Assembly (NCBI GenBank): GCA_964370015.1
Contig: CAYJHD010000001.1
Location: 16,884-80,883 of the forward strand
From: an uncultured Desulfovibrionaceae bacterium
GTDB taxonomy: Bacteria; Desulfobacterota; Desulfovibrionia; Desulfovibrionales; Desulfovibrionaceae
DNA length: 64,000 nucleotides
Reading direction: 5' to 3'
The notes under the pieces are model-generated. The model saw only the letters and a list, made by a program, of their open reading frames with translations, ran no database searches and was not told the DNA's origin. Every line of letters begins with the position of its first letter. Within the stretch, counting starts at the first letter, position 1. This document shows, piece after piece, positions 29,179-48,394 of the stretch. Position numbers and translations under genes: made by a program.

Positions 29179-29961
29179 TTACCCTATGCACAAAGAAGTC
29201 ATCTTTCCCATCTGCACACTACCTGCCCACCAAGCATATGGGCTTTGTGTTTGCGCAATTTCTGCTTGCAGCTGCATCAAAGAACGTTCTTCAGCGAGAC
29301 AATCTAATTTATTAAGCACAACTTTGCGCGCACATGATGTAGGGCAATCTTTAAAAAGACCTTTTTCGTGATGAGCCAAACAAAGCAAGTGGCTCAACTG
29401 AACATTCGCCCCCATGGGAACTTGCACCATGTGCGAAAAGAGCTCCGCCCTATGAACACGCTCCTCTGAGAGCACCGTGTCCACAACGTCAAGCCCCATG
29501 ACACCAAAGCATACATCGGCACTTTGTGGTATAACAGGTTCGTGTAAGGCTGGAGCTTTTAAAGCTTTACGAGCCGCTCCATCTGCTTCACACAAAATAA
29601 CATCGGCAAAGCCGGCATTGGCCCATGACTTCATGGCGTCAATGTGCTCGGTGGCTAAGCCCACAAGCTTCGAGCTCTTAGCATCTATATATGCCCCCAC
29701 CGCCACCACAGAATGTTGTTCCAAAGTCTTTTTTAAGACAGCATACATGTCGGCGCATGGGCTTTCCAGCACAAGGGGTATGGTGGTATCCACAAAGGTT
29801 TTTGTGGAAGTAACCACAAGCACACGCCTTCCCTCGCTGGCATAGGCTTGCGCCATGGCAGTAATAAGGGAGGTTTTCCCCCCTGCACCCACCACGGCAA
29901 TGAGCTTACATCCGCCGTCCAAAGATGGTAAAAGAGCTTGAATGCCCATATGATGCAACAT
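29179..29961 (-). CDS. yqeC: YqeC-type selenium-dependent hydroxylase accessory protein (P-loop)
   Basis: ORF track extends to 30093 and would overlap yqeB by 128 nt. ATG 29961 lies 4 nt after the yqeB stop. P-loop IAVVGAGGKTSLITAMA. Confidence 0.75.
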   Translation of the reverse strand: MLHHMGIQALLPSLDGGCKLIAVVGAGGKTSLITAMAQAYASEGRRVLVVTSTKTFVDTTIPLVLESPCADMYAVLKKTLEQHSVVAVGAYIDAKSSKLVGLATEHIDAMKSWANAGFADVILCEADGAARKALKAPALHEPVIPQSADVCFGVMGLDVVDTVLSEERVHRAELFSHMVQVPMGANVQLSHLLCLAHHEKGLFKDCPTSCARKVVLNKLDCLAEERSLMQLQAEIAQTQSPYAWWAGSVQMGKMTSLCIG

Positions 29962-29965
29962 AAAA

Positions 29966-30808
29966 TTAGCTCTTCTTATGGCCTTGCTGTAGCATAAAGT
30001 GCATAATGGCTTCCAGCACACCGCCACCAATGGACAATCCCTTATCAGAAACTTCGTCGCAATAGTCAATATCACAACGAGGATCCACATCACCCAGCTT
30101 GGTACGGTATTTCACAGGAGTGTTATCGCGTAAAAGACCACGAATGACGCCGGTAAAATTGGCATGAAAGGGCTTTCCATTGACCTGCCCAAGCTCTGCA
30201 CCTTCTTGTATCACCTCACCAATATGACATTGTGTGGTGAAAATGCCCTCTTCATGAGCCCAATGTACACGCTCCACACTGAAACCCTTCACAGGCGCAG
30301 GTGCACCGGTATTGGGTATGGCTGAGCCTTGGCGTATGACCCTGCCTAAATAATGCCCACGCATGGTTTCCACCACAGCATGCACGTCAGCCGTGGCATC
30401 TTGCCCTGCTGTAAAGCCTGGTCCAAGACCAATGACAAAGCGGGCCATGCCTTTATGTGTACCTATATTTTTCTTGGCCAAAATGGCATCCACCAGAACA
30501 TCGGCTTGCAACTGCGCAAGACAACTTCCTTCTGGATCCACCATGAGGGGAAGCGCGCCCTTATCCCATACGGCTTGCATCTGAGAGGGCTCAGTCACAA
30601 GCTCTACATGGATTCCTTCCACCGTACTACTGCCGCCATACACCGCCTCAGAAAAAGACACCGTCCTGCGCACAGCCAGTGGGCTTGGGGTTTCTAAAAA
30701 AACAATTCTTGTCAGCCCTGCACGGTACAAGCGCAAAGCCACACCGCTGGCTAAATCTCCTGCGCCGCGAAGCACAATTAAAGGCAAAGTTACATCTCGC
30801 ATTTTCAT
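29966..30808 (-). CDS. yqeB: YqeB-type selenium-dependent molybdenum hydroxylase system protein (XdhC-Rossmann-like)
   Basis: VLRGAGDLASGVALRLYRAGL near the N-terminus, about 280 aa. ATGA overlap with mocA upstream. Same neighbours as in the E. coli yqeB-yqeC-ygfJ locus. Confidence 0.75.
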   Translation of the reverse strand: MKMRDVTLPLIVLRGAGDLASGVALRLYRAGLTRIVFLETPSPLAVRRTVSFSEAVYGGSSTVEGIHVELVTEPSQMQAVWDKGALPLMVDPEGSCLAQLQADVLVDAILAKKNIGTHKGMARFVIGLGPGFTAGQDATADVHAVVETMRGHYLGRVIRQGSAIPNTGAPAPVKGFSVERVHWAHEEGIFTTQCHIGEVIQEGAELGQVNGKPFHANFTGVIRGLLRDNTPVKYRTKLGDVDPRCDIDYCDEVSDKGLSIGGGVLEAIMHFMLQQGHKKS

Positions 30809-31437
30809 TCTTCCCTAACGTACTTGGCGTACATTTCAGGTGTATCAATGTCCACAAAAGGAGCGTCCTCATCCATGGTCACAAAACGCTTTTCAAACAA
30901 AGTATTTTGCAATAAGGGGCGCGCACCGGTATCACCACATAATTCCAACACCCGTGCAAACTCCACCGAAGGAATAATTACGGGATTTCCCTTTTGTCCA
31001 TCGCCGGCACGCTGAGGAATCACCCAAGATGTGGGCGCCATGCGCGACTGCTCTACCAAGGTGTCAATAATATTTGGGGTCACAAAGGGCTGATCACCAA
31101 GAAGCACCATGGCGCCGCTCAGCGCAGGCAAAGCATGCATAACCACATGCTGCACGCCCACTTTTAGCGACTCTGACTGACCTAGCTCACACAAAGGATT
31201 ATATAAAACAATGCATCCATCCAAATTCAATTCAGAAATATACGACGCGTGTGAAGAAGTTGAAGCTCGCTCTGCCTCAGGGAAAACCACAATGACCTCA
31301 CGCAAGCAAGAAGCCAAAGCAGCATCAATCACATGCTGTAACATGGGCTTATTATGAATTTTAAGAGCCAATTTATTGCAGCCCATGCGCTTTGAAGCAC
31401 CACTGGCTAAAATTATTCCGCTTACTGTGGAACTCAT
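30805..31437 (-). CDS. mocA: Molybdenum cofactor cytidylyltransferase (MocA/YgfJ-like nucleotidyltransferase)
   Basis: ORF track extends to 31491; ATG 31437 gives MSSTVSGIILASGASKRMGCNKLAL, the MobA/MocA N-terminal nucleotide-binding block. Confidence 0.8.
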   Translation of the reverse strand: MSSTVSGIILASGASKRMGCNKLALKIHNKPMLQHVIDAALASCLREVIVVFPEAERASTSSHASYISELNLDGCIVLYNPLCELGQSESLKVGVQHVVMHALPALSGAMVLLGDQPFVTPNIIDTLVEQSRMAPTSWVIPQRAGDGQKGNPVIIPSVEFARVLELCGDTGARPLLQNTLFEKRFVTMDEDAPFVDIDTPEMYAKYVREE

Positions 31438-32021
31438 GGCGAACCTTTCCCCTCTATTTGCCTCACACCTATAAGTGTCAAAACATGCCACCCTTCATGG
31501 GCACAAGACAAATCTAGTAAAATATCCATACACATACTTCTCGCACATGCTTATTGCGAGGCACTGTAATGCAATTTTATGGGAATGTAAAAACAAGCTT
31601 TAATCTACAAAAAAGTATTTTTTCATAATCTATATTACTTTTTTCAAAATAAAATACACAAGAGAATTTATTATTTTAGCCATATTTCAACACATTATAC
31701 TTTTTCTACCCATGTGAAAAATGGATTTAGCAAGAAATTACCAGCTGGGGCTAGACATATTTTTGTATACCATGTAATTTTAACATGTGAACCATAAGTT
31801 TCGAATGGTGAAACTACTGGGCACGGTGATTTTCTCATACATATGCTGAAAAAATGCTACTTCATGAGGTTTCCAAAAAGACTCAAAAAATGTACCAAGC
31901 GTACTGATAATTTTTGACCTAGCTCTTGGCACCCTCTTAAGTATATTTGGTATGTATGCGCATTGTATACATTTCGGACAAAAAAGTATTCGTTCACGAT
32001 TTAACAGCAAAGGGTACAATT

Positions 32022-33353
32022 ATGAGTCATTCTCCTGCATCTGCTCCAACCTCAAGCAGTCATTTTTTGAAGTTTTTGATTTTAAGCTTCATTGGGGTTC
32101 TGGTTTTCTTCATTCCTGTTTATGAGGGAAAGATTCCTCTTGTACTCATCATCGGTTATGTGCGCGGCCTCATAGGAACTGGCATAGAAGGCTTTTCTGG
32201 CTCTCTCATCATTGCGCTCACCATTTTCTTGCTCATAAGCTGTCTTACCAAAAACGCTTTTGCACAAAAATACTTTGAAGGCATAGGCATGGTTCGCCGC
32301 TGTCTTTTCACCATAAGTTCCCTCATTGCCCTGCTGGTTTTGACTGGCGCAGACTTGGCTTTCATTCAGCACCCAAAAATTGGGGGCAATGTATTAAAAA
32401 TGGCCGGTATAGTGTTTTTAACCATTTTCATTGCAGGTAGTTTGGTTTCCTTTATCATTCGCTCAGGTATTGTGGAATTTTTATCCACCCTCACAGAACC
32501 CATCATGCGTCCTGTTTTTAAACTGCCAGGTCGCGCCGCAGTGGACATGCTCTCTTCCTTTGTGGCTTCGGCAGCTGTGGGCGTCTACTTTACTAGCCTT
32601 TATTATGAGAAAAAAGCCTATACTCAAAGGCAAGCATGTGCTGTGGTGACCAACTTCAGCGTTATCAGCCTCGGCTATATTGGTGTTTTGGCAAGTCTTG
32701 CTGGCCTCACTGCCATGTATGACACCTTTATCATCACTTCCTTTATCATTGTATTCATCATGGGTGCCATCATGGTGCGCATCCCCCCCATTTCCCTTAT
32801 TCCTGACACCTGCATTGACGGCAGTGAAGCTGCGTATCTTCCTGAAAAGATGACCTTCAACGAGCGCTTTACCCACGCAGTAAGCGAAGGTGTTAAGCGC
32901 GGTAAAGACTTCACCATTAAAGATTTTTTTGATAATATTCTCACCAGTTTTAAATTTGCCCACCAAACCATTTGCGTGCTTGTGGCCATTGCCACCACGG
33001 TATTAACCCTTGTATACTACACCAATGTCTTTAAATATTTAGGTGTGCCCTTTGCACCCATTTTAAAGTTCTTGGGTATTCCCAATGCAGAAATCATTGC
33101 CCCTTCTGTGCTCATCGGCATTGTGGAAGTCACCTTACCTACTTTATTGTTGGTAGGCTCAGGCATTGCGCAAGAGGCGTATTTCTTCATCGTGCTCTTA
33201 TCCATTGTACAAATTATTTTCTTCACCGAGTGCGGTACAGCCATTCTCGGTAGTAAAGTTCCCCTTTCACCCTTTAAACTTATTCTTATCTTCCTTGTGC
33301 GAACAGCCATTGCCATTCCCCTTGTGGCCGCGGCAACGCATATTATTTTTTAG
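32022..33353 (+). CDS. YjiH-type membrane protein (nucleoside-recognition GATE domain), paralog 1
   Basis: ORF track 31947; ATG 32022 preferred. Polytopic. IVEFLSTLTEPIMRPVFKLPGRAAVDMLSSFVASAAVGVYFT is shared almost verbatim with 39547-40896. Confidence 0.7.
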   Translation: MSHSPASAPTSSSHFLKFLILSFIGVLVFFIPVYEGKIPLVLIIGYVRGLIGTGIEGFSGSLIIALTIFLLISCLTKNAFAQKYFEGIGMVRRCLFTISSLIALLVLTGADLAFIQHPKIGGNVLKMAGIVFLTIFIAGSLVSFIIRSGIVEFLSTLTEPIMRPVFKLPGRAAVDMLSSFVASAAVGVYFTSLYYEKKAYTQRQACAVVTNFSVISLGYIGVLASLAGLTAMYDTFIITSFIIVFIMGAIMVRIPPISLIPDTCIDGSEAAYLPEKMTFNERFTHAVSEGVKRGKDFTIKDFFDNILTSFKFAHQTICVLVAIATTVLTLVYYTNVFKYLGVPFAPILKFLGIPNAEIIAPSVLIGIVEVTLPTLLLVGSGIAQEAYFFIVLLSIVQIIFFTECGTAILGSKVPLSPFKLILIFLVRTAIAIPLVAAATHIIF

Positions 33354-33522: not shown

Positions 33523-35775
33523 GTGCGCCACATCGGTCACTCTTATCCCATTCACGATGCCCCATCCAAAGCCGCAGGTACAGCCTGTTATGCAGGCGAT
33601 ATGGTTTTACCTCGCATGCTGCACATGGCCATACTCTTTAGCCCCATTGCCCACGGCAGGGTAAAGCATCTCGATTGCTCCAAAGCCTTAGCTCTAGAAG
33701 GCGTGGTAGAAATTTTGCACTGCTTTAACGCAGAGCATAACACCTATAATCGCTACCAAACCCAGCTGGGCCAAAGCCTTGTACAAAACGAACGCGTGTT
33801 CAACGAACATGTTCGCTTTGTGGGCGACCGCATAGCCGGCGTTGTGGCGAAAACAGCAGACATTGCACGCCGCGCTGTGGACCTCATTGAAGTGGAGTAC
33901 GAACAATACCCCCATTCCCTCAGCATACAAGACAGCCTCACCGGTATTATTAACGATGTGCATGAGCAAGGTGCCGTCTATCCTGCGCTTCCCTTCGAAG
34001 CCGGTAGCAAGTGCCAAGATGAAGATCTCATCACTGTCACCAGTCAAAGCAAGCTTGGTCGCATCAATCATATTTGCATGGAGCCCCACGCTTGTGTGGC
34101 CCATTATGATCCCTTGAAAGGCAGCCTCACCGTATATTCTCCAAGCCAGGCTGTTTTTGGCATTCGCACCCTCTTGGCGCAGATGTTTGATATGGATTTT
34201 GCCTCTGTGCGCGTGGTAAAAACCACCATGGGCGGTTCCTTTGGCGGAAAGCAAGAATGGATATTGGAACCGGCGACAGCTTTAGCCTCGCGCGCTGTGG
34301 GACAACCCGTAAAATTGGTCTACACACGCGAGCAATGCATCATCTCCACCATTTGTCGCTCTCCCATCGACGCCACCATGCATATTGACTATAAGCCCGA
34401 TGGACGCATAGCCAATATCTTTTGCGATGCTTCTTTGGACGCCGGCGCATATGTGGGCAATTCCGTAAACTATGCCAACACCTTGGGCACTAAATTTACC
34501 AAACTATATCAATGTCAGCACATACATTATGTGGGCCGAGCCGTCATCACCAATACCAGCGTGAGCGGTGCCTTTCGCGGGTGGACAAGTCCCGAGGCTG
34601 CGCTCATCATAGAGTACAATCTTGACCTTGCCGCCAAACGCCTTGGCATGGATCGCGTGGATATACGTCTTTGCAATACCCACAATGCCCATGACCACGA
34701 TGTTAAAGGCATGAGCGTGGGGAACTTGCAAGCCAAAGAAGCTTTGCAAAGGGGCAGAGAGCTTTTCCACTGGGATGCACGTCAGAAAGAGGTGGCAGAC
34801 TTCAACGCCAAGAACACACGCTTTAAACGCGGCCTTGGCGTGGCTCTAGGCGGACATGTTTCCGGTTTTTACCCTGTGAAAACAGACTTTGGGCGCGTGG
34901 ATATTACCTTAAACGAAAGTGGTTCTGTGAGCTGTAATATCACCCTACACGACCATGGTTGTGGCACGGTGACGGCTTTTTCCATGGTTGTGGCTGAGGC
35001 CATGGGGCTGGAGCTCAAAGACGTGCACATGGGCGAAGGTGATACCAGCGTGACCCCCTTTGACATCGGGTGTTTTTCCAGCCGCACCATGTATGTGCTG
35101 GGAAGAGCCGCCTATGAAGCAGCCATGGGCTTACGCCAACGCATGAAGGAGTATTTTTCTACCTTAACCAAGGTGCCTGTGGAAGATGTGGACATGGAGG
35201 GAAAAACCATTTTCTCCAAAACCCAACCGGAATTGCACTTCACCTTTACGCAATTGGTGGAACAGTGCCAACAAGTGCTTAAATGTCATCCTTTTTATAG
35301 TTATGAACACATTCCCACCACCAATGACTTGGTGGGCGGTGCTCATTTTGCCCTTTTGGAAGTGGATACCTACACCTGCTTTGCTAAGGTGCTGGATTAT
35401 GTGGCCGTGCATGATGTGGGTCAAGCCATCAACAGAGAGATGTGCGTGGCACAAATTCAAGGGGCCGTCACCATGGCCATGGGCGCCGTGCTCTACGAAC
35501 ATGTGGGCATGAATTCGCAAGGCGTCCCCAAGGGCAGCTTGAAAGACTATCATGTGGTCAATGCCTTTGAAGCCCCCAATGTGCAGGTGGAGCTCATAGA
35601 GATGGGCACATCTCATGGGCCGTACAATGCTAAATCCATTGGCGAAGCAGCCATCGTACCTGCGGCGTCGGCCTTTTTAAGCGCCATCAATGATGCCTTG
35701 GATACCGAGCTTGGCACCATTCCCCTCATTCCCGATACCCTTGCCCAACATTTGATTACTTTAGGGAGAGTCTAA
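33523..35775 (+). CDS. Xanthine dehydrogenase family molybdopterin-binding subunit, set 1
   Basis: 750 aa. KAAGTACYAGDM N-terminus, GGSFGGK, SGAFRGW and C-terminal YNAKSIGEAAIVPAASA (conserved catalytic Glu context). Confidence 0.9.
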   Translation: MRHIGHSYPIHDAPSKAAGTACYAGDMVLPRMLHMAILFSPIAHGRVKHLDCSKALALEGVVEILHCFNAEHNTYNRYQTQLGQSLVQNERVFNEHVRFVGDRIAGVVAKTADIARRAVDLIEVEYEQYPHSLSIQDSLTGIINDVHEQGAVYPALPFEAGSKCQDEDLITVTSQSKLGRINHICMEPHACVAHYDPLKGSLTVYSPSQAVFGIRTLLAQMFDMDFASVRVVKTTMGGSFGGKQEWILEPATALASRAVGQPVKLVYTREQCIISTICRSPIDATMHIDYKPDGRIANIFCDASLDAGAYVGNSVNYANTLGTKFTKLYQCQHIHYVGRAVITNTSVSGAFRGWTSPEAALIIEYNLDLAAKRLGMDRVDIRLCNTHNAHDHDVKGMSVGNLQAKEALQRGRELFHWDARQKEVADFNAKNTRFKRGLGVALGGHVSGFYPVKTDFGRVDITLNESGSVSCNITLHDHGCGTVTAFSMVVAEAMGLELKDVHMGEGDTSVTPFDIGCFSSRTMYVLGRAAYEAAMGLRQRMKEYFSTLTKVPVEDVDMEGKTIFSKTQPELHFTFTQLVEQCQQVLKCHPFYSYEHIPTTNDLVGGAHFALLEVDTYTCFAKVLDYVAVHDVGQAINREMCVAQIQGAVTMAMGAVLYEHVGMNSQGVPKGSLKDYHVVNAFEAPNVQVELIEMGTSHGPYNAKSIGEAAIVPAASAFLSAINDALDTELGTIPLIPDTLAQHLITLGRV

Positions 35776-36266
35776 TGCAACTTCATTTCACCTTAAATAA
35801 CAAGGCTGTGAGCCTAGACGTCCCTGATTCCAAACGCCTCATTGATATTTTACGCGATGATTTTTTACTCACAGGCACCAAGGAAGGTTGCGGCGAAGGC
35901 GAGTGCGGCGCGTGCACCGTCATCATGAATGGTGAAGCCGTACATGCCTGTCTTGTGCTGGCCTGCCAAATGGAGCAAGCAAACATACTTACCATTGAAG
36001 GCCTTTCACCCAAGGCGCATCTAGGGCAACTTTCCACCATTCAGCAAAACTTTGTGGATGAAATAGCCATACAATGCGGCTTTTGCACTTCGGGTATGAT
36101 CATGACCGCCGAGGCTCTTTTGCGTGAAAATCCCGATCCTAGCCAAGAAGAAATTCGCACAGCCCTTTCGGGAAATATCTGTCGCTGTTCCGGCTATACG
36201 CAAATACTTTCCGCCGTGGATAAAACCGCCAAGGACTATCAAGACCTAAACAAGGGAGAAAAGTAA
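35775..36266 (+). CDS. (2Fe-2S)-binding subunit, set 1
   Basis: GCGEGECGACTV, CGFCTSGM, CRCSGY. TAATG overlap with the Mo subunit. Confidence 0.92.
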   Translation: MQLHFTLNNKAVSLDVPDSKRLIDILRDDFLLTGTKEGCGEGECGACTVIMNGEAVHACLVLACQMEQANILTIEGLSPKAHLGQLSTIQQNFVDEIAIQCGFCTSGMIMTAEALLRENPDPSQEEIRTALSGNICRCSGYTQILSAVDKTAKDYQDLNKGEK

Positions 36267-36267: not shown

Positions 36268-37098
36268 ATGCACTCCTTTCGTCCCAGCACCTTGCAAGAG
36301 GTACCGCAAGTTCTTGCAAACATGACAGAACAAAGCAAAATTTTAGCGGGTGGTACAGACCTTATCATCAATTTATGTAAGGATGTGCATCCCGACCAAC
36401 TCTGCTATTTTGGTCATATTCCTGAATTACAAGGTGTTAGCCAAACAGATACGCATATCCAATTGGGTGCCTACACCACCATGCGCACTTTAGAAAAAGA
36501 CCCCATCATTCAGCAGCACTTGCCTGCGGTGGTTGATGCCGCCGCCGATGTGGGCTCTTGGCAAATTGCCAACAAAGCCACCATTGGGGGGAATATAGCC
36601 AATGCCTCTCCGGCGGCAGATTTACTGCCTGTGCTGTGCATGTTCAAAGCCACGGCTCATATTATGGGGCCACAAGGCACACGCCAACTACCCGTGGAAG
36701 ACATCATGCAGTCCTCCAGAAAAACCTGCTTGGCACACAATGAGCTCATCACCGCCTTCAGCATGCCCAAACCCAATTTTATGTCGGCCTTTTATAAGAT
36801 GGGCTCACGTAAAAAAGTGACCATTTCTCGCTTTGGCATTGCGCTGGGGTGCACCATGTCTGGCAAAGTTGTGGAACAAGCGCATATATATGTGGGTGCC
36901 ATCGCCCCCAAGGCCGTGCATTTGGCGGTGGCAGAGGAGTTTTTACAAGGAAAAGAACTTACAGAAGAAAATATTTTGCAAGCCGGTCTTCTCCTTTCGG
37001 AGCATATTAAGAACACCACGGGCCGCATATATAAAGGCTTTGCCGCCAAAGGGGTCATGTGTGATGCTTTTAGTCGGCTGTTGCCACGATTAACGTAA
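36268..37098 (+). CDS. FAD-binding (CO dehydrogenase flavoprotein-like) subunit, set 1
   Basis: LAGGTDLIINL, ATIGGNIANASPAADL; 276 aa. Confidence 0.88.
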   Translation: MHSFRPSTLQEVPQVLANMTEQSKILAGGTDLIINLCKDVHPDQLCYFGHIPELQGVSQTDTHIQLGAYTTMRTLEKDPIIQQHLPAVVDAAADVGSWQIANKATIGGNIANASPAADLLPVLCMFKATAHIMGPQGTRQLPVEDIMQSSRKTCLAHNELITAFSMPKPNFMSAFYKMGSRKKVTISRFGIALGCTMSGKVVEQAHIYVGAIAPKAVHLAVAEEFLQGKELTEENILQAGLLLSEHIKNTTGRIYKGFAAKGVMCDAFSRLLPRLT

Positions 37099-39546: not shown

Positions 39547-40896
39547 ATGACAGCAATTCCACAGCCAAACTGTACACCACAAACTTCGCAAGGAAGTATC
39601 CCCAAATTTATACTACTTAGTATTATAGGGTTATTTATTTTCTTTGTACCTGTAAGTGAAGGTCGCGTTCCATTAGTTATGCTAGTGACGTTTATTAAAG
39701 ACACCTTAAAAAATGCTAACTTGCTTCCCTACCTTGCTTTGGGCATCAGCGCATCCCTCATGGTGACGCTTTTCCTTGGCAAAGTGATGAAAATTCCTTT
39801 CTTTAAACGTCACCATAAAGGTGATACTGCATTCCGTATTTCTTTTTACGTGGCAGGACTTATCCTTAGCGTTATGATTTTAACCAAGCAAGCTCCAGCC
39901 TTTATTTTAGACCCCGAAGTGGGCGGTTTAGCTTTATATCTTTCTGCTGTTATTTTCTTAACTGTATCTTTGGCCGGGTGGCTTGTTTCCATCATCTTAA
40001 ATTCCGGCATCGTGGAATTCATGGCCGTTATTTTAGAACCCATCATGCGCCCTGCATTTAAGCTCCCCGGCGACTCCGCTGTGGACGCCATGTCTGCCTT
40101 TGTATCTTCTTCCGCTGTGGGTGTATACATCGCTGACCAACACTACCTTGATGGTAGATATACCCGCAAAGAAGCCTATGGTGTTGTGACCAACTTCTGC
40201 GTCATGAGCGTAGGTTACATGGGCGTTATTTCCGGCATTGGCAATGTATCTCAATATTTTACTGAAATTGTGCTCACCATTTTTGCTTCTGTTTTCATCA
40301 TTACAGCCATTATGATGCGCCTGCCTCCCATTGCCACCCTTCCCGGTATTTACAATGACGGTAGCACCCAAACTCCTGAGCAAAGAAAGCCTGTAAAGCG
40401 CGCAAATCGCTTTAAGGATGCCGTGGACATTGCTGTACAACAATCTGCACATTTTAACATTCCTTCTTTTGGTAAGAGCTTCATTTCCGCCATCTTCTTT
40501 GGGCAAAAAATTGTGGGCTTCTTAATGTGTATCGTTGTGTTAGCCATGGCTACCTACTACTACACACCTGTGTTCACCATCATCGGTCAGCCCATGGCAC
40601 CAGTACTAGACTTCTTTGGAATTCCTGATGCTGCCAAAATTGGCGCTGCCACCCTTATTGGTTTCATCGACGTAACCTTGCCTGCCATTGCTGTTTCTGA
40701 TCCTAGCATTGCACCCATGGCAGCTTTCTTCATCGTCGCTTTGTCCGCCGTACAAGTTATCTCTGTATCTGAAGCCGCCATCGCCATGGTGGAAGCTCAC
40801 TTCATGGTACGCGTATGGCACTTATTAGTTATTTTTGTATTGCGTACAGCCATTGCCATTCCTGTGGTAGCTGCATCCGCACACTTCTTTTTTTAA
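39547..40896 (+). CDS. YjiH-type membrane protein, paralog 2
   Basis: IVEFMAVILEPIMRPAFKLPGDSAVDAMSAFVSSSAVGVYIA and an overall TM pattern parallel to 32022-33353. Confidence 0.7.
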   Translation: MTAIPQPNCTPQTSQGSIPKFILLSIIGLFIFFVPVSEGRVPLVMLVTFIKDTLKNANLLPYLALGISASLMVTLFLGKVMKIPFFKRHHKGDTAFRISFYVAGLILSVMILTKQAPAFILDPEVGGLALYLSAVIFLTVSLAGWLVSIILNSGIVEFMAVILEPIMRPAFKLPGDSAVDAMSAFVSSSAVGVYIADQHYLDGRYTRKEAYGVVTNFCVMSVGYMGVISGIGNVSQYFTEIVLTIFASVFIITAIMMRLPPIATLPGIYNDGSTQTPEQRKPVKRANRFKDAVDIAVQQSAHFNIPSFGKSFISAIFFGQKIVGFLMCIVVLAMATYYYTPVFTIIGQPMAPVLDFFGIPDAAKIGAATLIGFIDVTLPAIAVSDPSIAPMAAFFIVALSAVQVISVSEAAIAMVEAHFMVRVWHLLVIFVLRTAIAIPVVAASAHFFF

Positions 40897-40957: not shown

Positions 40958-41830
40958 GTGAAACAAAGTAAAGCACAAGAATTCATCTGTCCCACCACAT
41001 TACAAGAAGCCGTGGAGGCTTTTGCCAAAGTTCAAGGCAAAGCCCTCTACTTAGCCGGTGCCACCGATGTTTTCGCCGAAAACAGCCAAGCAGATGCCTT
41101 CATTGATGTTACCCAAATTGGTTTAAACTATATGGAAGAGCGTGGTTCTGTCATCGCCATTGGCGCTGCCACCACCTTCAGTGACATCATAGCTTCCCCT
41201 CTTATGCAAGAAAAATGCACCGTTCTTTATGACGCTGCCAAGGTTCTTGCCGATAAAACCATTCGCAACGTGGCCACTTTTGCTGGCAACCTTGCTTCTG
41301 CTTTGCCCTCTGGCGATGCCATCCCCACCGTATATGTGACCCAAGCAGAACTTGTGCTCGTAAGCCCTGAAGGCGAACGTCGCGTTAAGGGTGAAGACTT
41401 TTTCACTGGCCCTCGCCAAACCGTGCTCAAACAAGGCGAACTCATTAAAGAAATACTTGTGCCAGCTTGTTGCGCTGCCCATAACAACGGAACTGCTTTT
41501 GAAAAAATTGCCAGAAACTCCGTTGATATTGCCGTGGCCAATGCCGGTGCCTATGTGGCCGTTAATGAAAAGCAAGAAGTCACCGACATTTGCCTCGCCC
41601 TTGGTGCTGTGGGCCCTACCGTTATGCGTGCTAAAAATGTGGAAGCCGCCCTTCAAGGCGCAGTGCTCACAGAAGAAGCTGTCAGCGCAGCCGTGGAAAA
41701 ACTGCCCGCAGACATTGCTCCCATTGACAATGTGCGCAGTACTGCCACCTATCGCCATGATGTAAGTAAGGTGCTTGCACAACGCGCCATCATGCGTGCC
41801 TACGATCAAGCCCTGAATAAAAAAGCATAA
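40958..41830 (+). CDS. FAD-binding subunit, set 2
   Basis: GTG start with RBS TAAGGAGA. LAGATDVFAEN, ATFAGNLASALPSGD; 290 aa. Confidence 0.88.
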   Translation: MKQSKAQEFICPTTLQEAVEAFAKVQGKALYLAGATDVFAENSQADAFIDVTQIGLNYMEERGSVIAIGAATTFSDIIASPLMQEKCTVLYDAAKVLADKTIRNVATFAGNLASALPSGDAIPTVYVTQAELVLVSPEGERRVKGEDFFTGPRQTVLKQGELIKEILVPACCAAHNNGTAFEKIARNSVDIAVANAGAYVAVNEKQEVTDICLALGAVGPTVMRAKNVEAALQGAVLTEEAVSAAVEKLPADIAPIDNVRSTATYRHDVSKVLAQRAIMRAYDQALNKKA

Positions 41831-41853: not shown

Positions 41854-42330
41854 ATGAAATACCCCATTACACTTTGTATCAATGGCATAGAAAGAGAAGC
41901 CCTTGTGAGCGCCGGCACCACATTAACCTCCCTCTTACGCGATGAATTTCGCTTAACCGGTGGCAAGATTGGCTGCGACGATGGCGATTGCGGCGCTTGC
42001 ACAGTTATTGTGGATGGAAAGGCTGTAAAGTCTTGCATCTACCCCGCAGTACGCGCCAATGGTAAAAATGTTACCACCATCGAAGGCGTGGCTGTGAACG
42101 GTGTTCTGCATCCCCTCCAAGAAAAGTTTGTGGAATTTGCCTCCATCCAATGCGGTTATTGTTCTCCCGGTTTCATCATGGCCGCCAAAGCCATGCTTGA
42201 CGCCAACCCCAATCCCACCGAAGAAGAAGCAAAAGATTGTATTTCTGGTAACATCTGCCGCTGTACTGGTTATGTGAAGCCTGTACAAGCCATCATGGCA
42301 GCAGCACAAGAAATGAAGAAGGGGAACTAA
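41854..42330 (+). CDS. (2Fe-2S)-binding subunit, set 2
   Basis: GCDDGDCGACTV, CGYCSPGF, CRCTGY. Confidence 0.92.
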   Translation: MKYPITLCINGIEREALVSAGTTLTSLLRDEFRLTGGKIGCDDGDCGACTVIVDGKAVKSCIYPAVRANGKNVTTIEGVAVNGVLHPLQEKFVEFASIQCGYCSPGFIMAAKAMLDANPNPTEEEAKDCISGNICRCTGYVKPVQAIMAAAQEMKKGN

Positions 42331-42332
42331 TC

Positions 42333-44621
42333 ATGAGCACCTACAAAGTATTAGGAAAATCCTTAGAAAGAAGCGACGCACGCAATAAAGTCACCGGCGC
42401 CGCCGAATACACCACCGACATGCACATCCCCGGCATGACCATTGCCAAAGCTGTGCGTTGCCCTTATGCCCATGCCAAAATCATTTCCATGAACAAAGCA
42501 GAAGTGGAAGCTTTGCCCGGCGTTATTCGCGTTGTCACATGGGAAGACTTACCAAGAAAGCGTTACTGCACCGCCGGTTATCCCAAGGAAACCATCCCCG
42601 GTGTGGCCAAGGGTGTGGATCCTGAATTCCTCTTTGACAAATACATTTTAGATCAAGAGCTGCATTATGAAGGCGAAATTGCCGCCGTGGTAGTGGCAGA
42701 AAATGAAGATATTGCCGAAGCTGCTGCGCTCAAACTCAACATTGAATACGAAGAGCTTCCCTTTGTCACAGAAATCGACGACGCTCTTGCCCCCGATGCA
42801 CCCTTTGTGCATGGTGGCTCCAGAAAGAACGTCATCGATGCTGAAATGAGCAAAGGCGATGTGGAAGAAGGCTTTAAGCAAGCTGACCACATCTTTGAAG
42901 ACACATATTTCATGCATCCACAACAGCATGTATGTATGGAGCCTTGCTGCACCATTGCTAAGGAAGATCCTTCCGGTCGTATCACCGTATGGTCCACCAC
43001 ACAGGTGCCCTACCACACCAGAAGAAATATCGCCGAAACCTTAGATATTCCCATTAGCAAAATCCGTGTTATCAAGCCCACCCTTGGCGGCGGTTTTGGC
43101 GAAAGACAAATGGTCATCAATGAAATCCTCTTGGTTGCCATCACTCGTTTCATCAAGCGTCCCGTGAAGATGATCATGACACGTCAAGAAAACTTGGCCT
43201 ATGTGTCCTTCCGTCACGAAGCCCGCATTAGCCTTAAGACCGGCGTGAAAAATGACGGCTCCATTGTGGCTTACCAAATGAAGGTACAATCCAATGCCGG
43301 TGCGTACACAGGTCACAGCCCCTATGTGACCAAGGCCATGGCCACCAAGCTTCCTTATCGCATTCCCAATGTGCAATTTAACGCTGAGATTGTGTTCACC
43401 AACCGTGCAGAAGGCGGCGCCTTCCGTGGTTATGGTAACCCACAAATGGCCTTTGCCCGCGAAACACATTTGGACCGCATTGCCGAAGCTTTGAATTTGG
43501 ATCCGGTGGCATTCCGCCGCTTAAACGTGGTGCGCGTGGGTGAAGCCAACCCCGTGGCTCTAAAATCCCCGTGGATTTTGCAAAGTAATGGTTTAGAAGA
43601 GTGCCTTGACAAGGGCATGGAAGCCATTGGTTGGGATAAGCCCCTGCCTTCCGCCACCCCAGGTAAGCTCTATGGTCGCGGTCTTTCTTGTTCCTTGCAC
43701 GTGACAGGCACCTCAGCGGAACCGGACTTCTCCTCTGCGCAAGTGAAGGTCAACGAAGACGGCACCGTGATTTTGCTCATCGGTTCCCCAGACTTGGGTC
43801 AAGGTTCCGACACAGCTCACTCCATGATTTGCGCCGAAACCCTTGGCGTGCGTTATGAAGATATTTACTGCTACTCTGCCGATACCGACGTGACTTCCTT
43901 CGACATGGGTTCTTACGCATCGCGTCAAACCTATGTGGCAGGTAATGCCGTGTATCTTGCTGCGCAAAAAGCCAAAGAAAAGCTCATCCGTTTTGGTAGC
44001 GAAAAGACTGGCTTAAAGCGCGGTCACTTGAATATTAAGGAAGGCTGGCTTGTGCGTGTGGAAAATGAAGAGCGCATCATGCCTTTGGCTGAAGTGGCTT
44101 ACTATGGTCTCTATCAAGCTCCAGACCCAGAGTTCATCGACGAAACCGCTTCTTATTCTGCCCTCAACTGCCCACCGGCCTTTGGTGCAGACTTCTGCGA
44201 ACTTGAAGTGGACGAAGCCACCGGCGCTGTGAACATTCTTCACTTTGTGGCCGCCCATGACACCGGTACCGCCGTGAACCCTGCCCTCATCGAAGGTCAG
44301 ATTGAAGGTTGTATCTCTCAAGGCATAGGTCAAACCTTCATGGAAGATATGATCTACAACAGCCGTGGCAAACTCATGAACGACACATTCAAAGATTACA
44401 AAGTGCCCCGCGCCAATGACATGCCCCCCATCACTTCCATCATTGTGGAAGCTTATGAGCCTTCCGGCCCCTTTGGTGCCAAGAGTGTGGGCGAAATGGC
44501 TGTGGCACCCGTGCCTGGTGCCATTGTAAACGCTTTGTACCAAGCCACAGGCGTACGTTTCACACATTTGCCCATTTCCAAGGGCGATATTTTACAAGCG
44601 CTTAAAGACAAGAAGGCATAA
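42333..44621 (+). CDS. Xanthine dehydrogenase family molybdopterin-binding subunit, set 2
   Basis: 762 aa. KVTGAAEYTTDM, GGGFGER, GGAFRGYG, FGAKSVGEMAVAPVPGA. Confidence 0.9.
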   Translation: MSTYKVLGKSLERSDARNKVTGAAEYTTDMHIPGMTIAKAVRCPYAHAKIISMNKAEVEALPGVIRVVTWEDLPRKRYCTAGYPKETIPGVAKGVDPEFLFDKYILDQELHYEGEIAAVVVAENEDIAEAAALKLNIEYEELPFVTEIDDALAPDAPFVHGGSRKNVIDAEMSKGDVEEGFKQADHIFEDTYFMHPQQHVCMEPCCTIAKEDPSGRITVWSTTQVPYHTRRNIAETLDIPISKIRVIKPTLGGGFGERQMVINEILLVAITRFIKRPVKMIMTRQENLAYVSFRHEARISLKTGVKNDGSIVAYQMKVQSNAGAYTGHSPYVTKAMATKLPYRIPNVQFNAEIVFTNRAEGGAFRGYGNPQMAFARETHLDRIAEALNLDPVAFRRLNVVRVGEANPVALKSPWILQSNGLEECLDKGMEAIGWDKPLPSATPGKLYGRGLSCSLHVTGTSAEPDFSSAQVKVNEDGTVILLIGSPDLGQGSDTAHSMICAETLGVRYEDIYCYSADTDVTSFDMGSYASRQTYVAGNAVYLAAQKAKEKLIRFGSEKTGLKRGHLNIKEGWLVRVENEERIMPLAEVAYYGLYQAPDPEFIDETASYSALNCPPAFGADFCELEVDEATGAVNILHFVAAHDTGTAVNPALIEGQIEGCISQGIGQTFMEDMIYNSRGKLMNDTFKDYKVPRANDMPPITSIIVEAYEPSGPFGAKSVGEMAVAPVPGAIVNALYQATGVRFTHLPISKGDILQALKDKKA

Positions 44622-44635: not shown

Positions 44636-46978
44636 ATGACCACATACGCACCAGAAACCTTTATAGTTGGGAAAAACCAAAGCAAGCATGATGCCCTGCT
44701 CAAAGCAACAGGGCAAATGCAATATACCGGAGATATGACCTTCCCCGATATGTTGCATTGTAAAGTGCTGCGCAGTCCCCACGCCCATGCCCTTGTGAAG
44801 AGCATTGACGTTTCCGAGGCTCTTGCCATGGAAGGCGTTGTTGATGTTATCACACATGACGATTGTCCTAAAATTTTAAGCATGCACCAATTTCTGCACG
44901 TGCCAGAAATCATGTACTATGACAGCTACATTTTAGAAAATCATGCCCGTCACGTGGGTGACCGCATAGCCGCCGTGGCCGCGGAAAGCGAAGAAATTGC
45001 CTTGGCAGCTTTGAAAAAAATCAAGGTGGAATATGAAATTCTCCCTTGCGCTGTGACACCAGAGCAAGCCCTTGCCGAAAATGCTCCGCAAATTCACCAT
45101 GAAGCTCGTCGCGGCGATAAGCCCGTGGAGTTCAATGGTAGCAATATCCTTGAAACCAAGGACGTAAGCATTGGTGATACGGATAAATGCTTTGCAGAGT
45201 CCGACACCATCATTGAGCGTACCTACAAAACTTCTCGTCCAAACCCAGCCATGCTTGAGCGCACTTGCGTCATAGCCAAGAAGCGTTTGGACGGACGCAT
45301 TGATATGTGGGCCACATCCCAAGGTATTCATGCCATGCGCATGAACGTTTCCCATTCCTTGGGCGTGCCCGTGAGCAAAATCAATTGCAACAGAATGTAC
45401 CTTGGCGGTGCCTTTGGTGCGCACATCCACACTGGCTTCATTGAAAACATCGCCGCTCTGCTCACCATGCGTACCGGTCGCCCTGTGCGCTGCGAAAAGA
45501 GCCGTGAAGAAATCTTCATGTCTTGTGGACGTCACCCCATGATTCTTAAGCTTCGTGTGGGCTTCTTAAAAGACGGCACCATGAAGGCTTTCCACGTGGA
45601 CGTCACCGACGACACCGGCGGCTATGCTTTCTCCGGTAGCTCCAAGCTTTCTTTATCTTGTGGCTTTTCCATGTCCATGTACAAGTCTGAAAGCTTGCGC
45701 ATGACGGGTCGCTCCATTTACACCAACACGCCTCCCATGTCTGCCATGCGCGGCGCGGGTAACCCCCAAGCCAACTGGGCCGTGGAAAGCTTCATGAACG
45801 AAGCGGCCAAAGAGCTGAACATCGACCCCATTGCCTTGCGCATGAAGAACAACCTTGGCGTGGGCGATATCTTCTACGGTCAAGGCCCAGATGTGCGCGC
45901 ACGCATTCAAAGCTGTGGAACTCCGGAGCTTTTAGCCGTGGGCGCAGCCAAAATTGGCTGGGAAGAGCGCAAAAAAATCAACCGCACACCGTATCCTGAT
46001 AAGCCATGGATTAAGCGCGGCATTGGTTTTGCTCGTGGTTTCCACACCTCAGGTTGCGGTTCTGAAAAGCCCAACCGCTACATCATCGACCATAGCGCAT
46101 GCTTCTTGAAAATGAACGAAGACGGCACAGCTCAGCTCATGAACTCTTGTGCTGACCTTGGCACAGGCGTGCTTTCTGCACACCAAGCCATTGTTGCCGA
46201 AACATTGGGTATCAGCTTTGACCAAGTCATTGTGAACCTTGGCGACACCGACACCACACCTTTTGACGGTCCCACCCACGCCAGCCGTGGTTTGTATGGT
46301 TCCGGTCAAGCTGTGCATGCCGCCGCCAAGAAAATCCGCGTGAAGCTTTTGGAATGGGCCGCTCGTTTCCTTTCTTGCGGTACAGAAGACATTGAGCTTC
46401 GCAACAATCAGGCTTATTTCCATAATGATCCTAGCCGTTGCGTTTCCATTGCAGACATTGTATCCACCGCGCACTTCAGCGGTTGGGGCACAGCCACTGC
46501 AGAAGCTGCGGTTCGTCCCAATTGTTGTCCTCCTCACTTCGTGGTTATCTTCATCGAAGCCGATGTGGACACCCACACAGGTAAAGTGGACGTGGTTCGC
46601 GCCATCAGTGGCGTGGATACCGGCACTCCCATCAACCTGCTCAACGTGGAAGGACAAATGGAAGGCGGTATGCATATGGGCCTTGGTTTTGCGCTCATGG
46701 AAGACGCGCTCATTGACCCAGAAAATGGCCACTTGCTCAATGCAAACTTTGCCGACTATAAAATGTTGACCATGCAAGACATGCCACGTGTGGAAAAGTT
46801 CTTAGCCAATATCTATGAACCTTCCGGCCCCTTTGGTGCCAAGGCCATTGGCGAAGGCGTAACCAACCCCATTGCCGCCGCCGTGGCCGACGCCATTGAC
46901 GACGCTGTGGGTGTACGCATTCGTGATTTGCCCTGCTCGCCAGAAAAAATCCTTAAAGCACTAAACGTTCTTGCATAA
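44636..46978 (+). CDS. Xanthine dehydrogenase family molybdopterin-binding subunit, set 3
   Basis: 780 aa. KATGQMQYTGDM, GGAFGAH, MSAMRGAGNPQ, FGAKAIGEGVTNPIAAA. Confidence 0.9.
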   Translation: MTTYAPETFIVGKNQSKHDALLKATGQMQYTGDMTFPDMLHCKVLRSPHAHALVKSIDVSEALAMEGVVDVITHDDCPKILSMHQFLHVPEIMYYDSYILENHARHVGDRIAAVAAESEEIALAALKKIKVEYEILPCAVTPEQALAENAPQIHHEARRGDKPVEFNGSNILETKDVSIGDTDKCFAESDTIIERTYKTSRPNPAMLERTCVIAKKRLDGRIDMWATSQGIHAMRMNVSHSLGVPVSKINCNRMYLGGAFGAHIHTGFIENIAALLTMRTGRPVRCEKSREEIFMSCGRHPMILKLRVGFLKDGTMKAFHVDVTDDTGGYAFSGSSKLSLSCGFSMSMYKSESLRMTGRSIYTNTPPMSAMRGAGNPQANWAVESFMNEAAKELNIDPIALRMKNNLGVGDIFYGQGPDVRARIQSCGTPELLAVGAAKIGWEERKKINRTPYPDKPWIKRGIGFARGFHTSGCGSEKPNRYIIDHSACFLKMNEDGTAQLMNSCADLGTGVLSAHQAIVAETLGISFDQVIVNLGDTDTTPFDGPTHASRGLYGSGQAVHAAAKKIRVKLLEWAARFLSCGTEDIELRNNQAYFHNDPSRCVSIADIVSTAHFSGWGTATAEAAVRPNCCPPHFVVIFIEADVDTHTGKVDVVRAISGVDTGTPINLLNVEGQMEGGMHMGLGFALMEDALIDPENGHLLNANFADYKMLTMQDMPRVEKFLANIYEPSGPFGAKAIGEGVTNPIAAAVADAIDDAVGVRIRDLPCSPEKILKALNVLA

Positions 46979-47841
46979 TGGAGTTTGGTATGCATTCCCT
47001 AGAGTTTTATACCCCAAATACAGTAGAAGAAGCCTGCACGCTCTTACAAGAGCTGGGCTCCAAAGCCACCGTTCTTGCCGGCGGTACCGACGTTGTCATG
47101 CGTCACAACAAAGGCATTGTGGCTTATGAAAAAATGGTGAGCATTGCCAAGCTTGATGCTTTACGCGGCATCACAGAAAAAGACGGCGCCTTGTGCATTG
47201 GTGCATTAACAACCCATGCGCAAGTGGCAGAAAATGCCCTTGTGAAAGAGCATTTCCCTGCTCTGGCCCATGCTTGCTTACAAGTGGGCTCCGCACTCAT
47301 TCGTAATCGCGGCACCGTGGGCGGCAATATTTGTAATGCTTCCCCCGTGGCAGATTCCGTATGTGCACTCATGGCCTTAAACGCCACCTTCTGCCTACAA
47401 AGTGTCAACGGCACACGCCAAGTGGCCGTGGCGGACTTTTTCACAGGTCCCGGTCAATGCGTACGCAAGGCAGATGAATTGCTCACCTGCATATGCATTC
47501 CTTTGGCCAAGCAAGAACAATGTTTCTCCAAGCTTGGTCCCAGAAAAAATGCCGACATTGCTGTGGTGAACATGGCCTTTGCCTTTGAAATGCAAAGCGG
47601 CGTTGTGGCACAAGCCAAGGTGGCCTTTGGTGCTGTGGCTCCCACCGTCATTCGCATCAGCCAAGCTGAACAGCTCATGAATGGTAAAAAGCCTGCCGAA
47701 CTAGACCTTGACGCCATCGCCCAAGCATGCGAAGCCGGTGTACGCCCCATCAGCGACTGGCGCGGTAGTAAAGAATACCGTACAAAAACGGCTTACTTCC
47801 TCGTGCGTGATGCCTTGGAAGCCTTGATAAAAAAATTATAG
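46978..47841 (+). CDS. FAD-binding subunit, set 3
   Basis: TAATG overlap with the set 3 Mo subunit. LAGGTDVVMRH, GTVGGNICNASPVADS. Confidence 0.88.
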   Translation: MEFGMHSLEFYTPNTVEEACTLLQELGSKATVLAGGTDVVMRHNKGIVAYEKMVSIAKLDALRGITEKDGALCIGALTTHAQVAENALVKEHFPALAHACLQVGSALIRNRGTVGGNICNASPVADSVCALMALNATFCLQSVNGTRQVAVADFFTGPGQCVRKADELLTCICIPLAKQEQCFSKLGPRKNADIAVVNMAFAFEMQSGVVAQAKVAFGAVAPTVIRISQAEQLMNGKKPAELDLDAIAQACEAGVRPISDWRGSKEYRTKTAYFLVRDALEALIKKL

Positions 47842-47851
47842 GAACATTGTC

Positions 47852-48394
47852 ATGGAAAAACAGATTACCTTTACCCTTAACGGAAAATCAGTGAATGCCA
47901 CAGTGCCCACCCATTGGACGCTTATGCAATTTTTGCGTGAAGGCCTTGGGCTCACCGGCACCAAGTGTTCCTGCGCAGAAGGCGAATGTGGCACATGCAC
48001 CGTCATTTATGATGGTAAAGCCGTGACGTCTTGCCTTGTGATGGCCGCTGAAATTGACGGGCATAGCGTGGAAACCATTGAAGGCCTTTCCCAAGGTCTT
48101 TCCACCATTGAAGCTTTGCATCCCTTACAAAAGGCTTTCATTGCCAAGGGTGCCATTCAATGCGGTTTTTGCACACCTGGCATGATTATGGCTGCCAAGG
48201 CCTTGCTTGATGAAAATCCAACCCCCACCGAAGACGACATCAAACAAGCTCTGTACGGTAACCTTTGCCGTTGCACAGGCTATGAAAAAATTCTTGATGC
48301 CGTGCTCAGCGTTGTGAATAAAGAAGAGTTTACCATTGACGACAGCGTGTGGCGCGTAGCTGCCAATGCCGAAGGGCATGGCTGTAAGCAATAA
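47852..48394 (+). CDS. (2Fe-2S)-binding subunit, set 3
   Basis: SCAEGECGTCTV, CGFCTPGM, CRCTGY. C-terminal extension of about 20 aa. Confidence 0.9.
   Translation: MEKQITFTLNGKSVNATVPTHWTLMQFLREGLGLTGTKCSCAEGECGTCTVIYDGKAVTSCLVMAAEIDGHSVETIEGLSQGLSTIEALHPLQKAFIAKGAIQCGFCTPGMIMAAKALLDENPTPTEDDIKQALYGNLCRCTGYEKILDAVLSVVNKEEFTIDDSVWRVAANAEGHGCKQ

Follow-up and report, generated by a model that had tools for sequence, protein, structure and literature searches.

Few selenium-dependent molybdenum hydroxylases (SDMHs) are known to us, namely nicotinate dehydrogenase, clostridial xanthine dehydrogenase (XDH), purine hydroxylase and, recently, DOPDH. The genomic trait that marks them was reportedly defined by Haft and Self in 2008 as the occurrence of YqeB, YqeC and MocA/YgfJ beside genes of the XDH family, as in Clostridioides difficile, Enterococcus faecalis and the ygeV–ygfT region of Escherichia coli, and we know of no account of the mode of action of YqeB and YqeC. 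In C. difficile, growth on xanthine and on urate requires yqeB and selD (PMC11448449), and in Clostridium sporogenes selD is required for DOPDH, which is inactive in a selD mutant (bioRxiv 10.1101/2025.04.24.650524); the Deltaproteobacteria are a selenoprotein-rich group (PMC5029168). Here we describe, in a stretch of 64,000 nt from an uncultured, gut-type Desulfovibrionaceae bacterium (contig CAYJHD010000001.1, positions 16,884–80,883; the whole stretch is hereafter the window), a gene island of ~23 kb (29179–52182) that holds selenium-cofactor maturation genes together with three molybdenum (Mo) hydroxylases, a hydantoinase-like enzyme and carbamoylases. An initial annotation of this DNA knew of no study of such a pathway in a sulfate-reducer-like lineage. 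This stands as far as experiments go, none of which came to light in our literature searches, and has to be narrowed for the SDMH trait, which occurs widely in the genomes of cultured Desulfovibrionaceae and carries annotation there already. It is the coupling of the trait to a pathway of two hydroxylases, a hydantoinase and a carbamoylase that is uncharacterized, and no description of a cluster of this composition was found in the literature searched.

By gene spacing the island falls into four units: mocA-yqeB-yqeC; Gate1-Mo1-FeS1-FAD1; Amd1 with the gene of an EamA transporter; and a nine-gene operon in the order Gate2-FAD2-FeS2-Mo2-Mo3-FAD3-FeS3-amidohydrolase-Amd2, with gaps of 2–75 nt. 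The initial annotation had closed the region at 48394; the functional unit runs on to 52182 and takes in the cyclic amidohydrolase, an amidase and an IclR-family regulator. We hold with moderate confidence that the region 29179–52182 is an island serving the catabolism of at least one nitrogen heterocycle. Within it, judged by gene neighbourhoods, Mo2, Mo3 and the two hydrolases that follow them form a pathway module of their own, which recurs in different phyla (Bacillota and Synergistota) and in metagenomes; Mo1 stands apart. This module probably breaks a nitrogen ring compound down to an amino acid.

The open reading frames (ORFs) scanned against NCBIfam and Pfam profiles were those of 130 aa or more across the window; only short ones that lay inside a larger gene or overlapped one were omitted. 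As first annotated, there are three complete Mo/FeS/FAD sets with intact cofactor motifs, all on the plus strand and each in its own gene order: Mo1 (33523–35775), FeS1 (35775–36266) and FAD1 (36268–37098); FAD2 (40958–41830), FeS2 (41854–42330) and Mo2 (42333–44621); and Mo3 (44636–46978), FAD3 (46978–47841) and FeS3 (47852–48394). The FeS and FAD subunits were assigned by profile matches, FAD2 being 43–50% identical to its partners in three of the loci compared below (L006, L007 and L008). Both 2Fe-2S cysteine motifs are present in all three FeS subunits. Every molybdopterin subunit keeps the Mo=O-binding Gln (in an S/T-x-S/T-Q motif, mapped by alignment to Gln224 of quinoline oxidoreductase, Qor), GGxFG, the xxRG loop and the catalytic Glu (mapped through Qor Glu743), and the sets have the XDH architecture of a Mo subunit of this kind with 2x[2Fe-2S] and FAD subunits. 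The C-terminal block G-A-K-S/A-I/V-G-E, initially described for all three, is found in Mo2 (GAKSVGE) and Mo3 (GAKAIGE), the Mo1 version being NAKSIGE.

The three Mo subunits are deep paralogues with a mutual identity of 26–32%, and are 28–38% identical to E. coli XdhA (Mo2, 37.6%). All nine subunits fall short of the equivalog cut-offs for XdhABC (NF043082/83/84; PRK09970/71, PRK09908), the scores for sets 1, 2 and 3 being 497, 675 and 550 bits against 780 for Mo (NF043082, XdhA), 183, 170 and 171 against 217 for FeS, and 158, 162 and 240 against 310 for FAD. The model for selenium-dependent XDH/DOPDH, TIGR03311, likewise gave 247, 341 and 326 bits against a cut-off of 830, FeS and Mo being encoded here by separate genes. 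With these cut-offs unreached, the enzymes are not equivalogs of the characterized XDH, purine hydroxylase or selenium-dependent XDH types. The residue that follows GGxFGxK, which we take to be the place of the purine-binding Glu802 of the bovine enzyme, is Gln in Mo1 and Mo2 and Ile in Mo3. The bovine Glu802/Arg880 criterion for xanthine specificity was rejected, since Gln also occupies the Glu802 position in E. coli XdhA.

Comparison with other genomes sets Mo2 and Mo3 apart. Relatives of Mo3 that are 60–71% identical occur in Lutispora, Tissierellaceae and Synergistales, including Synergistes jonesii, and Mo3 orthologues, 60–70% identical, were found in seven loci (L006, L007, L008, L012, L014, L024 and L029); all of these apart from L014, where the stretch covered holds Mo3 and hydrolases only and ends there, also have a Mo2 orthologue (51–61% identical). 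The two are adjacent in Lutispora (L006), S. jonesii (L007), a Tissierellaceae metagenome-assembled genome (MAG; L012) and the metagenome contigs L008, L024 and L029, and in L008, a JGI metagenome contig, the gene order is identical to that of the window. Orthologues of the cyclic amidohydrolase, 56–61% identical, are present in every full cluster, those of Amd2 being 42–50% identical; Gate2 orthologues head the cluster in L006, L007, L008, L012 and L029, and an IclR gene accompanies it in L006, L007, L008, L012, L014 and L029. Wherever the flanking sequence of the examined loci was long enough, the Mo2/Mo3 clusters have no other catabolic gene in common, and the product that leaves the carbamoylase should therefore be a central metabolite. 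In Lutispora saccharofermentans (L006, 15882–19686) a third set, FeS-Mo-FAD, directly follows the carbamoylase gene; its Mo subunit is 28–39% identical to Mo1, Mo2 and Mo3, and as it is orthologous to none of them, extra hydroxylases have been recruited to the cluster more than once. A Desulfobacterales genome has a 57%-identical homologue in a trio that stands alone.

The initial annotation had read the three hydroxylases as steps of one pathway. Only Mo2 and Mo3 travel together, with the hydantoinase- and carbamoylase-like genes, and Mo1 with its own Gate transporter is, on the same kind of evidence, best described as an independent cassette. The relatives of Mo1 are 86–98% identical in four related MAGs and at most 58% identical beyond them, in Lachnospiraceae, Natranaerobius, Peptoniphilus, Fusobacterium and Treponema. 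In Lachnospiraceae (orthologue 56% identical) and Natranaerobius (50%) the unit consists of Mo-FeS-FAD and one or two Gate proteins, with no hydrolases and no yqeBC within 10 kb, and Gate1 orthologues flank Mo1-type trios in L003, L004 and L005. Gate1 (31947–33353, plus strand; true start probably the ATG at 32022; PF07670, 48 bits) is a membrane protein with a Gate or 'nucleoside recognition' domain and a putative substrate importer, and Gate2 (39547–40896, plus strand; PF07670), the first gene product of the nine-gene operon, is a 38%-identical paralogue. The Gate1-Mo1-FeS1-FAD1 unit could accordingly be pictured as self-contained, importing and hydroxylating a substrate of its own.

The maturation genes lie on the minus strand, divergent from the Gate1-Mo1 operon and at most 17 kb from all three trios. 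The yqeB and yqeC assignments hold in profile searches: YqeC (29179–29961), with a P-loop GAGGKT, scores 164.2 bits with TIGR03172 (curated cut-off 73.05) and 125 bits with PF19842, and YqeB (29966–30808; EF2563 family) scores 313.6 bits with TIGR03309 (curated cut-off 220). For the MocA/YgfJ-like molybdenum cofactor cytidylyltransferase (30805–31437; PF12804, NTP_transf_3) TIGR03310 is the top-scoring model, though at 141.9 bits it stays below the cut-off of 186.45; the gene keeps its conserved place before yqeB, as in loci L009 and L010, to whose genes it is 42–46% identical. The YqeB of the window is a short form that matches the C-terminal half of E. coli YqeB (46% identity, residues 270–529), and its relatives, 53–61% identical, are common in cultured Desulfovibrionaceae and other Thermodesulfobacteriota, where the NCBI names are YqeB/EF2563 family. 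The three genes are tightly packed; the overlapping operon first described is real at the mocA stop and yqeB start, which share 4 nt (ATGA), and not at the next junction, where the yqeC ATG at 29961 lies 4 nt past the yqeB stop. Together the three products would make the molybdopterin cytosine dinucleotide cofactor and, by analogy with their families, install the labile selenium ligand.

Whether the hydroxylases of the island carry selenium has to be weighed from gene neighbourhoods. The link between maturation genes and XDH-family enzymes that was noted initially is borne out in other genomes, for in S. jonesii a yqeB homologue (40.6% identity) stands directly after the Mo2 orthologue, and in the Tissierellaceae MAG an M20 gene is followed by genes for XdhC, YqeB (41.5% identity), YqeC and MocA. 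A functional link of YqeB with the Mo2/Mo3 enzymes is likely because, counting the window, yqeB adjoins their cluster in three phyla, each time in another arrangement, for which chance would hardly account. The recurrence is independent support for the selenium dependence of this pair. A number of findings weigh against selenium, or would suit an ordinary sulfido (Mo=S) cofactor, with yqeB and yqeC serving one of the enzymes, or another encoded elsewhere, and the island as a whole not depending on selenium. In four of the eight full or partial clusters (L006, L008, L024 and L029) yqeB does not occur within 10 kb. Genes of classic XdhC type, the chaperones of sulfurated molybdenum cofactor, adjoin the cluster in both S. 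jonesii and the Tissierellaceae MAG, and a sulfur-type cofactor is possible for this reason. The adjacency of Mo1 and yqeBC is lineage-specific and is not seen in L005, an 87%-identical relative in the Desulfovibrionaceae, nor do the other Mo1-type cassettes (L003 and L004) have yqeBC nearby; the trio that mocA-yqeBC serves in other Desulfovibrionaceae is another one, not orthologous to those of the island. In C. difficile, moreover, deletion of yqeC has no phenotype, and growth on hypoxanthine needs neither selD nor yqeB (PMC11448449). We nevertheless consider it rather unlikely that the island runs on the sulfido cofactor, given the recurrence of yqeB beside the Mo2/Mo3 cluster, the divergent arrangement of mocA-yqeBC and Gate1-Mo1 with a promoter motif common to the second divergent region, and the fact that no XdhC gene was found in the window. 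Among the ORFs of the 64-kb window selD was not found either.

The substrates of the enzymes had initially been held to be unreadable from the sequence. They can be narrowed by the ring-opening and decarbamoylating enzymes, which went unmentioned there. The cyclic amidohydrolase (48454–49860, plus strand; probable start the ATG at 48484) has as its nearest solved relative the non-ATP L-hydantoinase 1GKR (265.7 bits, against 228 bits for the allantoinase 3E74), all of whose binuclear-metal ligands (HxH, carboxylated Lys, His, His and Asp) it keeps in the alignment. Its conserved partner Amd2 (49936–51126, plus strand) is an L-carbamoylase-like amidase of the M20 family that scores 294.7 bits with TIGR01879 (cut-off 204). 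Amd1 (38138–39379, minus strand; 348.9 bits with the same model), an amidase of the M20 hydantoinase/carbamoylase family, is an extra paralogue in this lineage, 32% identical to Amd2, and forms a unit with an EamA/DMT-family transporter (37203–38099, minus strand; PF00892, 116.6 bits), an EamA gene being present also in the orthologous cluster L008. For both amidases the nearest solved relative is the L-N-carbamoylase 3N5F (256.9 bits for Amd1, 195 bits for Amd2), the allantoate amidohydrolase structure giving about 165 bits; the allantoate equivalogs are not reached, with 228 and 234 bits against 597.75 for AllC (TIGR03176) and 421 against 479 for NF006775. Amidohydrolase homologues of at least 56% identity, found in metagenomes, sit with Mo2/Mo3 orthologues, and those of 44–53% identity sit in hyu-type units without Mo enzymes. 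In one unit of this sister clade (L017, 8851–14939) a LysR gene is followed by genes for a hydantoinase, an SSF permease, a carbamoylase and an Asp/Glu/hydantoin racemase; in another (L013, 9207–12675) the order is AroM, hydantoinase, carbamoylase. The closest solved relatives and the hyu operons of the sister clade thus point to hydrolases of L-hydantoinase/L-carbamoylase type, which would narrow the substrate class.

A hydantoinase requires a ring amide and a carbamoylase a ureido group, and the carbons on which Mo hydroxylases place oxo groups are those adjacent to a ring nitrogen. A pair of such hydroxylases combined with a hydantoinase and a carbamoylase would therefore be exactly what is required to take an N-CH=N heteroaromatic ring, devoid of both oxo groups, to an amino acid. 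We hypothesize that the nine-gene operon is the core of such a pathway, which would begin with import of the substrate. The two hydroxylases would then each place an oxo group on a ring carbon beside nitrogen, one turning the N-CH=N carbon into a ureide carbonyl and the other making a ring amide, such that an aromatic ring becomes a hydantoin-type cyclic ureide. The L-hydantoinase-like enzyme would open the ring amide and the L-carbamoylase-like enzyme strip off the carbamoyl group to yield an amino acid, NH3 and CO2, while the electrons would leave via 2x[2Fe-2S] and FAD to an acceptor. An outcome of amino acid, CO2 and NH3 fits, because the cluster has no further conserved genes. The most parsimonious substrate class would be a C4-substituted imidazole, for example a histidine-derived acid, be it the gut metabolite imidazole propionate or imidazole acetate, giving glutamate or aspartate, a purine being possible. 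Mammalian molybdenum hydroxylases oxidize imidazolone propionate to hydantoin-5-propionate. In its most specific form, an oxygen-independent imidazole-ring pathway in which two selenium-dependent hydroxylases carry imidazole propionate or acetate to a 5-substituted hydantoin and on to glutamate or aspartate, the proposal is a speculative one that we regard as doubtful. A barbiturase route for uracil was rejected, as its ring opening belongs to a different enzyme family, and so was a nicotinate route, which has no ureido group and hence no need for a carbamoylase.

The same enzymes might instead form a purine island, in which Mo1, Mo2 and Mo3 would be a purine hydroxylase and XDHs of differing regiospecificity, as in Clostridium purinolyticum, the cyclic amidohydrolase a xanthine amidohydrolase or an allantoinase, and the M20 amidases cleave 4-ureido-5-imidazolecarboxylate or allantoate. 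A good deal would agree with this, and part of it weighs against the hydantoin-type pathway. The best NCBIfam matches of all nine subunits are the XdhA, XdhB and XdhC models, the score of Mo2 (675 of 780 bits) leaving a purine substrate possible, and E. coli XdhA is also the closest named relative of Mo2. With the allantoinase model TIGR03178 the cyclic amidohydrolase scores 355.5 bits, ~2 bits short of the cut-off of 357.85, and allantoate amidohydrolase models give 343–421 bits. The Gate domain is a 'nucleoside recognition' domain, and the experimentally supported functions of yqeB all concern purines. The genes of xanthine amidohydrolase are still unknown (PMC3519856). A further point against the hydantoin-type pathway is that no Asp/Glu/hydantoin racemase was found in the window, whereas the sister-clade locus L017 has one. 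Against a purine pathway stand the XDH equivalog cut-offs, which no subunit reaches, and the fact that both purine hydroxylations are normally done by a single XDH. Our window scans found neither a guanine or adenine deaminase nor an NCS2 purine permease, and none of the genes for later steps (aminoimidazole, formiminoglycine, glycine, ureidoglycolate or oxamate), and the cluster ends at the M20 amidase in other phyla too. As the solved structures and the sister clade favour an L-hydantoinase and an L-carbamoylase, we regard a purine island as possible but unlikely.

XDH-family enzymes of anaerobes can also act as dehydroxylases, which is a further point against an oxidative pathway. The hydroxylases of the island would in that case remove oxo groups and use the heterocycle as an electron sink, in the manner of DOPDH (urate to 2,8-dioxopurine), 4-hydroxybenzoyl-CoA reductase (4-HBCR) or urolithin dehydroxylase. 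It is 4-HBCR that is the top solved relative of both Mo1 and Mo2, DOPDH/XdhD runs reductively in anaerobes, and a flavodoxin gene lies nearby (26876–27418). The FAD subunits of the island, however, lack the extra 4Fe-4S insertion of 4-HBCR, and TIGR03195 gives a low score with the alignment in two pieces. The downstream hydantoinase and carbamoylase require that oxo groups be present, and the reductive urate pathway needs YgfK/UacX and SsnA, neither of which was found in the window. The host, furthermore, encodes an anaerobic respiration (a fumarate reductase-like flavoprotein, dcu and aspA) that is a possible acceptor for an oxidative pathway. Reductive dehydroxylation appears to us quite improbable.

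The IclR-family regulator (51367–52182, minus strand; profile match) probably controls the units of the island. Between mocA and Gate1 lies a divergent promoter region (31438–31946) with a candidate operator around 31787–31817 (GTGAACCATAAGTTTCGAATGGTGAAACTAC), and a second one between Amd1 and Gate2 (39380–39546) has two TGAAACT sites 21 bp apart. The motif TGAAACTAC, with related half-sites ~21–22 bp apart, is common to the two regions, at 31787–31817 and 39441–39470 (39442 and 39463), and in L005, a related MAG, it is kept upstream of the orthologue of Gate1 (8262–8295). Three of the 13 TGAAACT sites of the window fall in the 684 bp that make up the two divergent promoter regions. These positions are weakly suggestive of TGAAACTAC as a candidate operator for IclR and of a common regulator for the units; that the motif is drawn from three sites only speaks against leaning on it. 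A nearly identical 40-nt palindrome (CTGGGAGAAAACCTTTTCTGAAGAAAAGGTTTTCTCCCAG) occurs at only two places in the window, each at the end of one plus-strand hydroxylase operon. Both are copies of the same hairpin with an 18-bp stem and stand between convergent genes, one at 37119–37158 (predicted ΔG −29 kcal/mol, z −7.4) and the other, between Amd2 and the IclR gene, at 51137–51176 (predicted ΔG −20.7 kcal/mol). In L001, a conspecific MAG labelled 'uncultured Desulfovibrionaceae bacterium' that is collinear with the window at 89–96% nucleotide identity, a copy of the palindrome stands at the junction matching 37132/37158. The palindrome may be a bidirectional terminator or an element like the repetitive extragenic palindromes.

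Recent horizontal transfer of the island was considered, but base composition gives no signal of it, as the GC content of its genes, 0.48–0.50, equals that of aspA, dcu and the neighbouring porin gene (0.47–0.485), the last being a DESULF_POR1 gene by profile match (27650–29095). Upstream, at 15961–25326, are genes for a dcu C4-dicarboxylate transporter and for aspartate ammonia-lyase (aspA) and, further on, for a flavoprotein resembling fumarate reductase and aspartate oxidase (22968–24620) and an Fe-S protein (24571–25326); in the related MAG L005 the last two also precede the Mo1 cassette. This group may be a module for fumarate respiration and might act as an electron sink. That the aspA, dcu and fumarate reductase-like genes provide the island with a sink for aspartate or with an electron acceptor is speculation, and unrelated genes lie between. 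Within the same stretch, at 21579–22580, is a stand-alone gene for an EutJ-like chaperone; its score exceeds the NCBIfam cut-off, and the neighbourhood contains no further eut genes. Farther away, two adjacent proteins of GmrSD/DUF262 type (one with DUF7834) and an HTH regulator with WYL/WCX domains are encoded at 4299–8688, where the GC content is 31–35%, and probably make up a small anti-phage defence islet. They are followed on the minus strand (9691–13668) by DNA-damage genes, namely DUF1848, an AlkD-like DNA alkylation repair gene, ogt (methylated-DNA-protein-cysteine methyltransferase), umuC and umuD. At the other end of the window, in a region of ~40% GC, three ORFs (54534–55982, 57713–62092 and 62119–63975; 482, 1459 and 618 aa) had no match in Pfam or NCBIfam.

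A cluster that recurs across phyla, with yqeB adjoining it in three of them, is a concrete and testable candidate for new SDMHs, and it bears on the old question of the natural substrates of L-hydantoinase/carbamoylase systems. Should the imidazole pathway with its two selenium-dependent hydroxylases prove true, the cluster would provide the first natural upstream source for these systems and two new selenium-dependent Mo hydroxylases. If the substrate in gut Desulfovibrionaceae is a histidine-derived imidazole or a purine, the pathway would be relevant to host-metabolite turnover and to the selenium economy of the gut. If the enzymes are ordinary purine XDHs, the island is a routine member of an annotated trait.

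Among known systems, the island shares with the SDMH trait itself the three accessory genes, joined in a single operon next to XDH-family enzymes; its bearer is anaerobic and probably host-associated, and the clustering of several hydroxylase loci recalls C. difficile, where four of the five loci lie near one another. The island differs in its YqeB, which has no counterpart of the N-terminal, XdhC-like half of the E. coli protein, in its three-subunit hydroxylases, which are not orthologous to XdhD, EF2570 or DOPDH, and in the hydrolases that accompany them. The closest cases among cultured Desulfovibrionaceae are Pseudodesulfovibrio tunisiensis and Halodesulfovibrio marinisediminis, in which mocA-yqeB-yqeC lies directly beside one XDH-family trio. 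Their accessory operon is orthologous to that of the island (YqeB 56–57%, MocA 42–46% and YqeC 37–39% identity), but their Mo subunits are only 25–36% identical to Mo1, Mo2 and Mo3, and they have no hydantoinase or carbamoylase there.

With E. coli XdhABC, the clostridial selenium-dependent XDH and purine hydroxylase the island shares the three-subunit architecture and the cofactor motifs, and trio 3 has the Mo-FAD-FeS gene order of E. coli xdhABC; it departs from XdhABC and clostridial XDH in scoring below the equivalog cut-offs and in a context without purine salvage or deaminase genes. The 2,8-dioxopurine pathway likewise joins a selenium-linked XDH-family enzyme to a cyclic amidohydrolase and an M20 hydrolase that removes ureido groups, the amidohydrolase of the window being 32% identical to E. 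coli HyuA. In place of its single FeS-Mo fusion, however, the island has two or three FAD-containing trios, and it has no ring reductase, so that the ring must be made hydrolysable by oxidation; SsnA, YgfK/UacX, YgeW/UacY, YqeA and YgeX, which belong to the 2,8-dioxopurine and reductive urate pathway, were not found among the ORFs scanned. The hyu operons of Arthrobacter aurescens type resemble the island in the nearest solved relatives of its hydrolases (1GKR and 3N5F) and in the hyu-like operons of the sister clade, its amidohydrolase, which keeps the binuclear-metal ligands, being closest to hydantoinases and its TIGR01879 amidase being encoded next to it. The island lacks their racemase and has a Gate transporter instead of one of SSF or NCS1 type, and, unlike the pairs of those operons, its hydantoinase- and carbamoylase-like pair is uniquely joined in one operon with two Mo hydroxylases.

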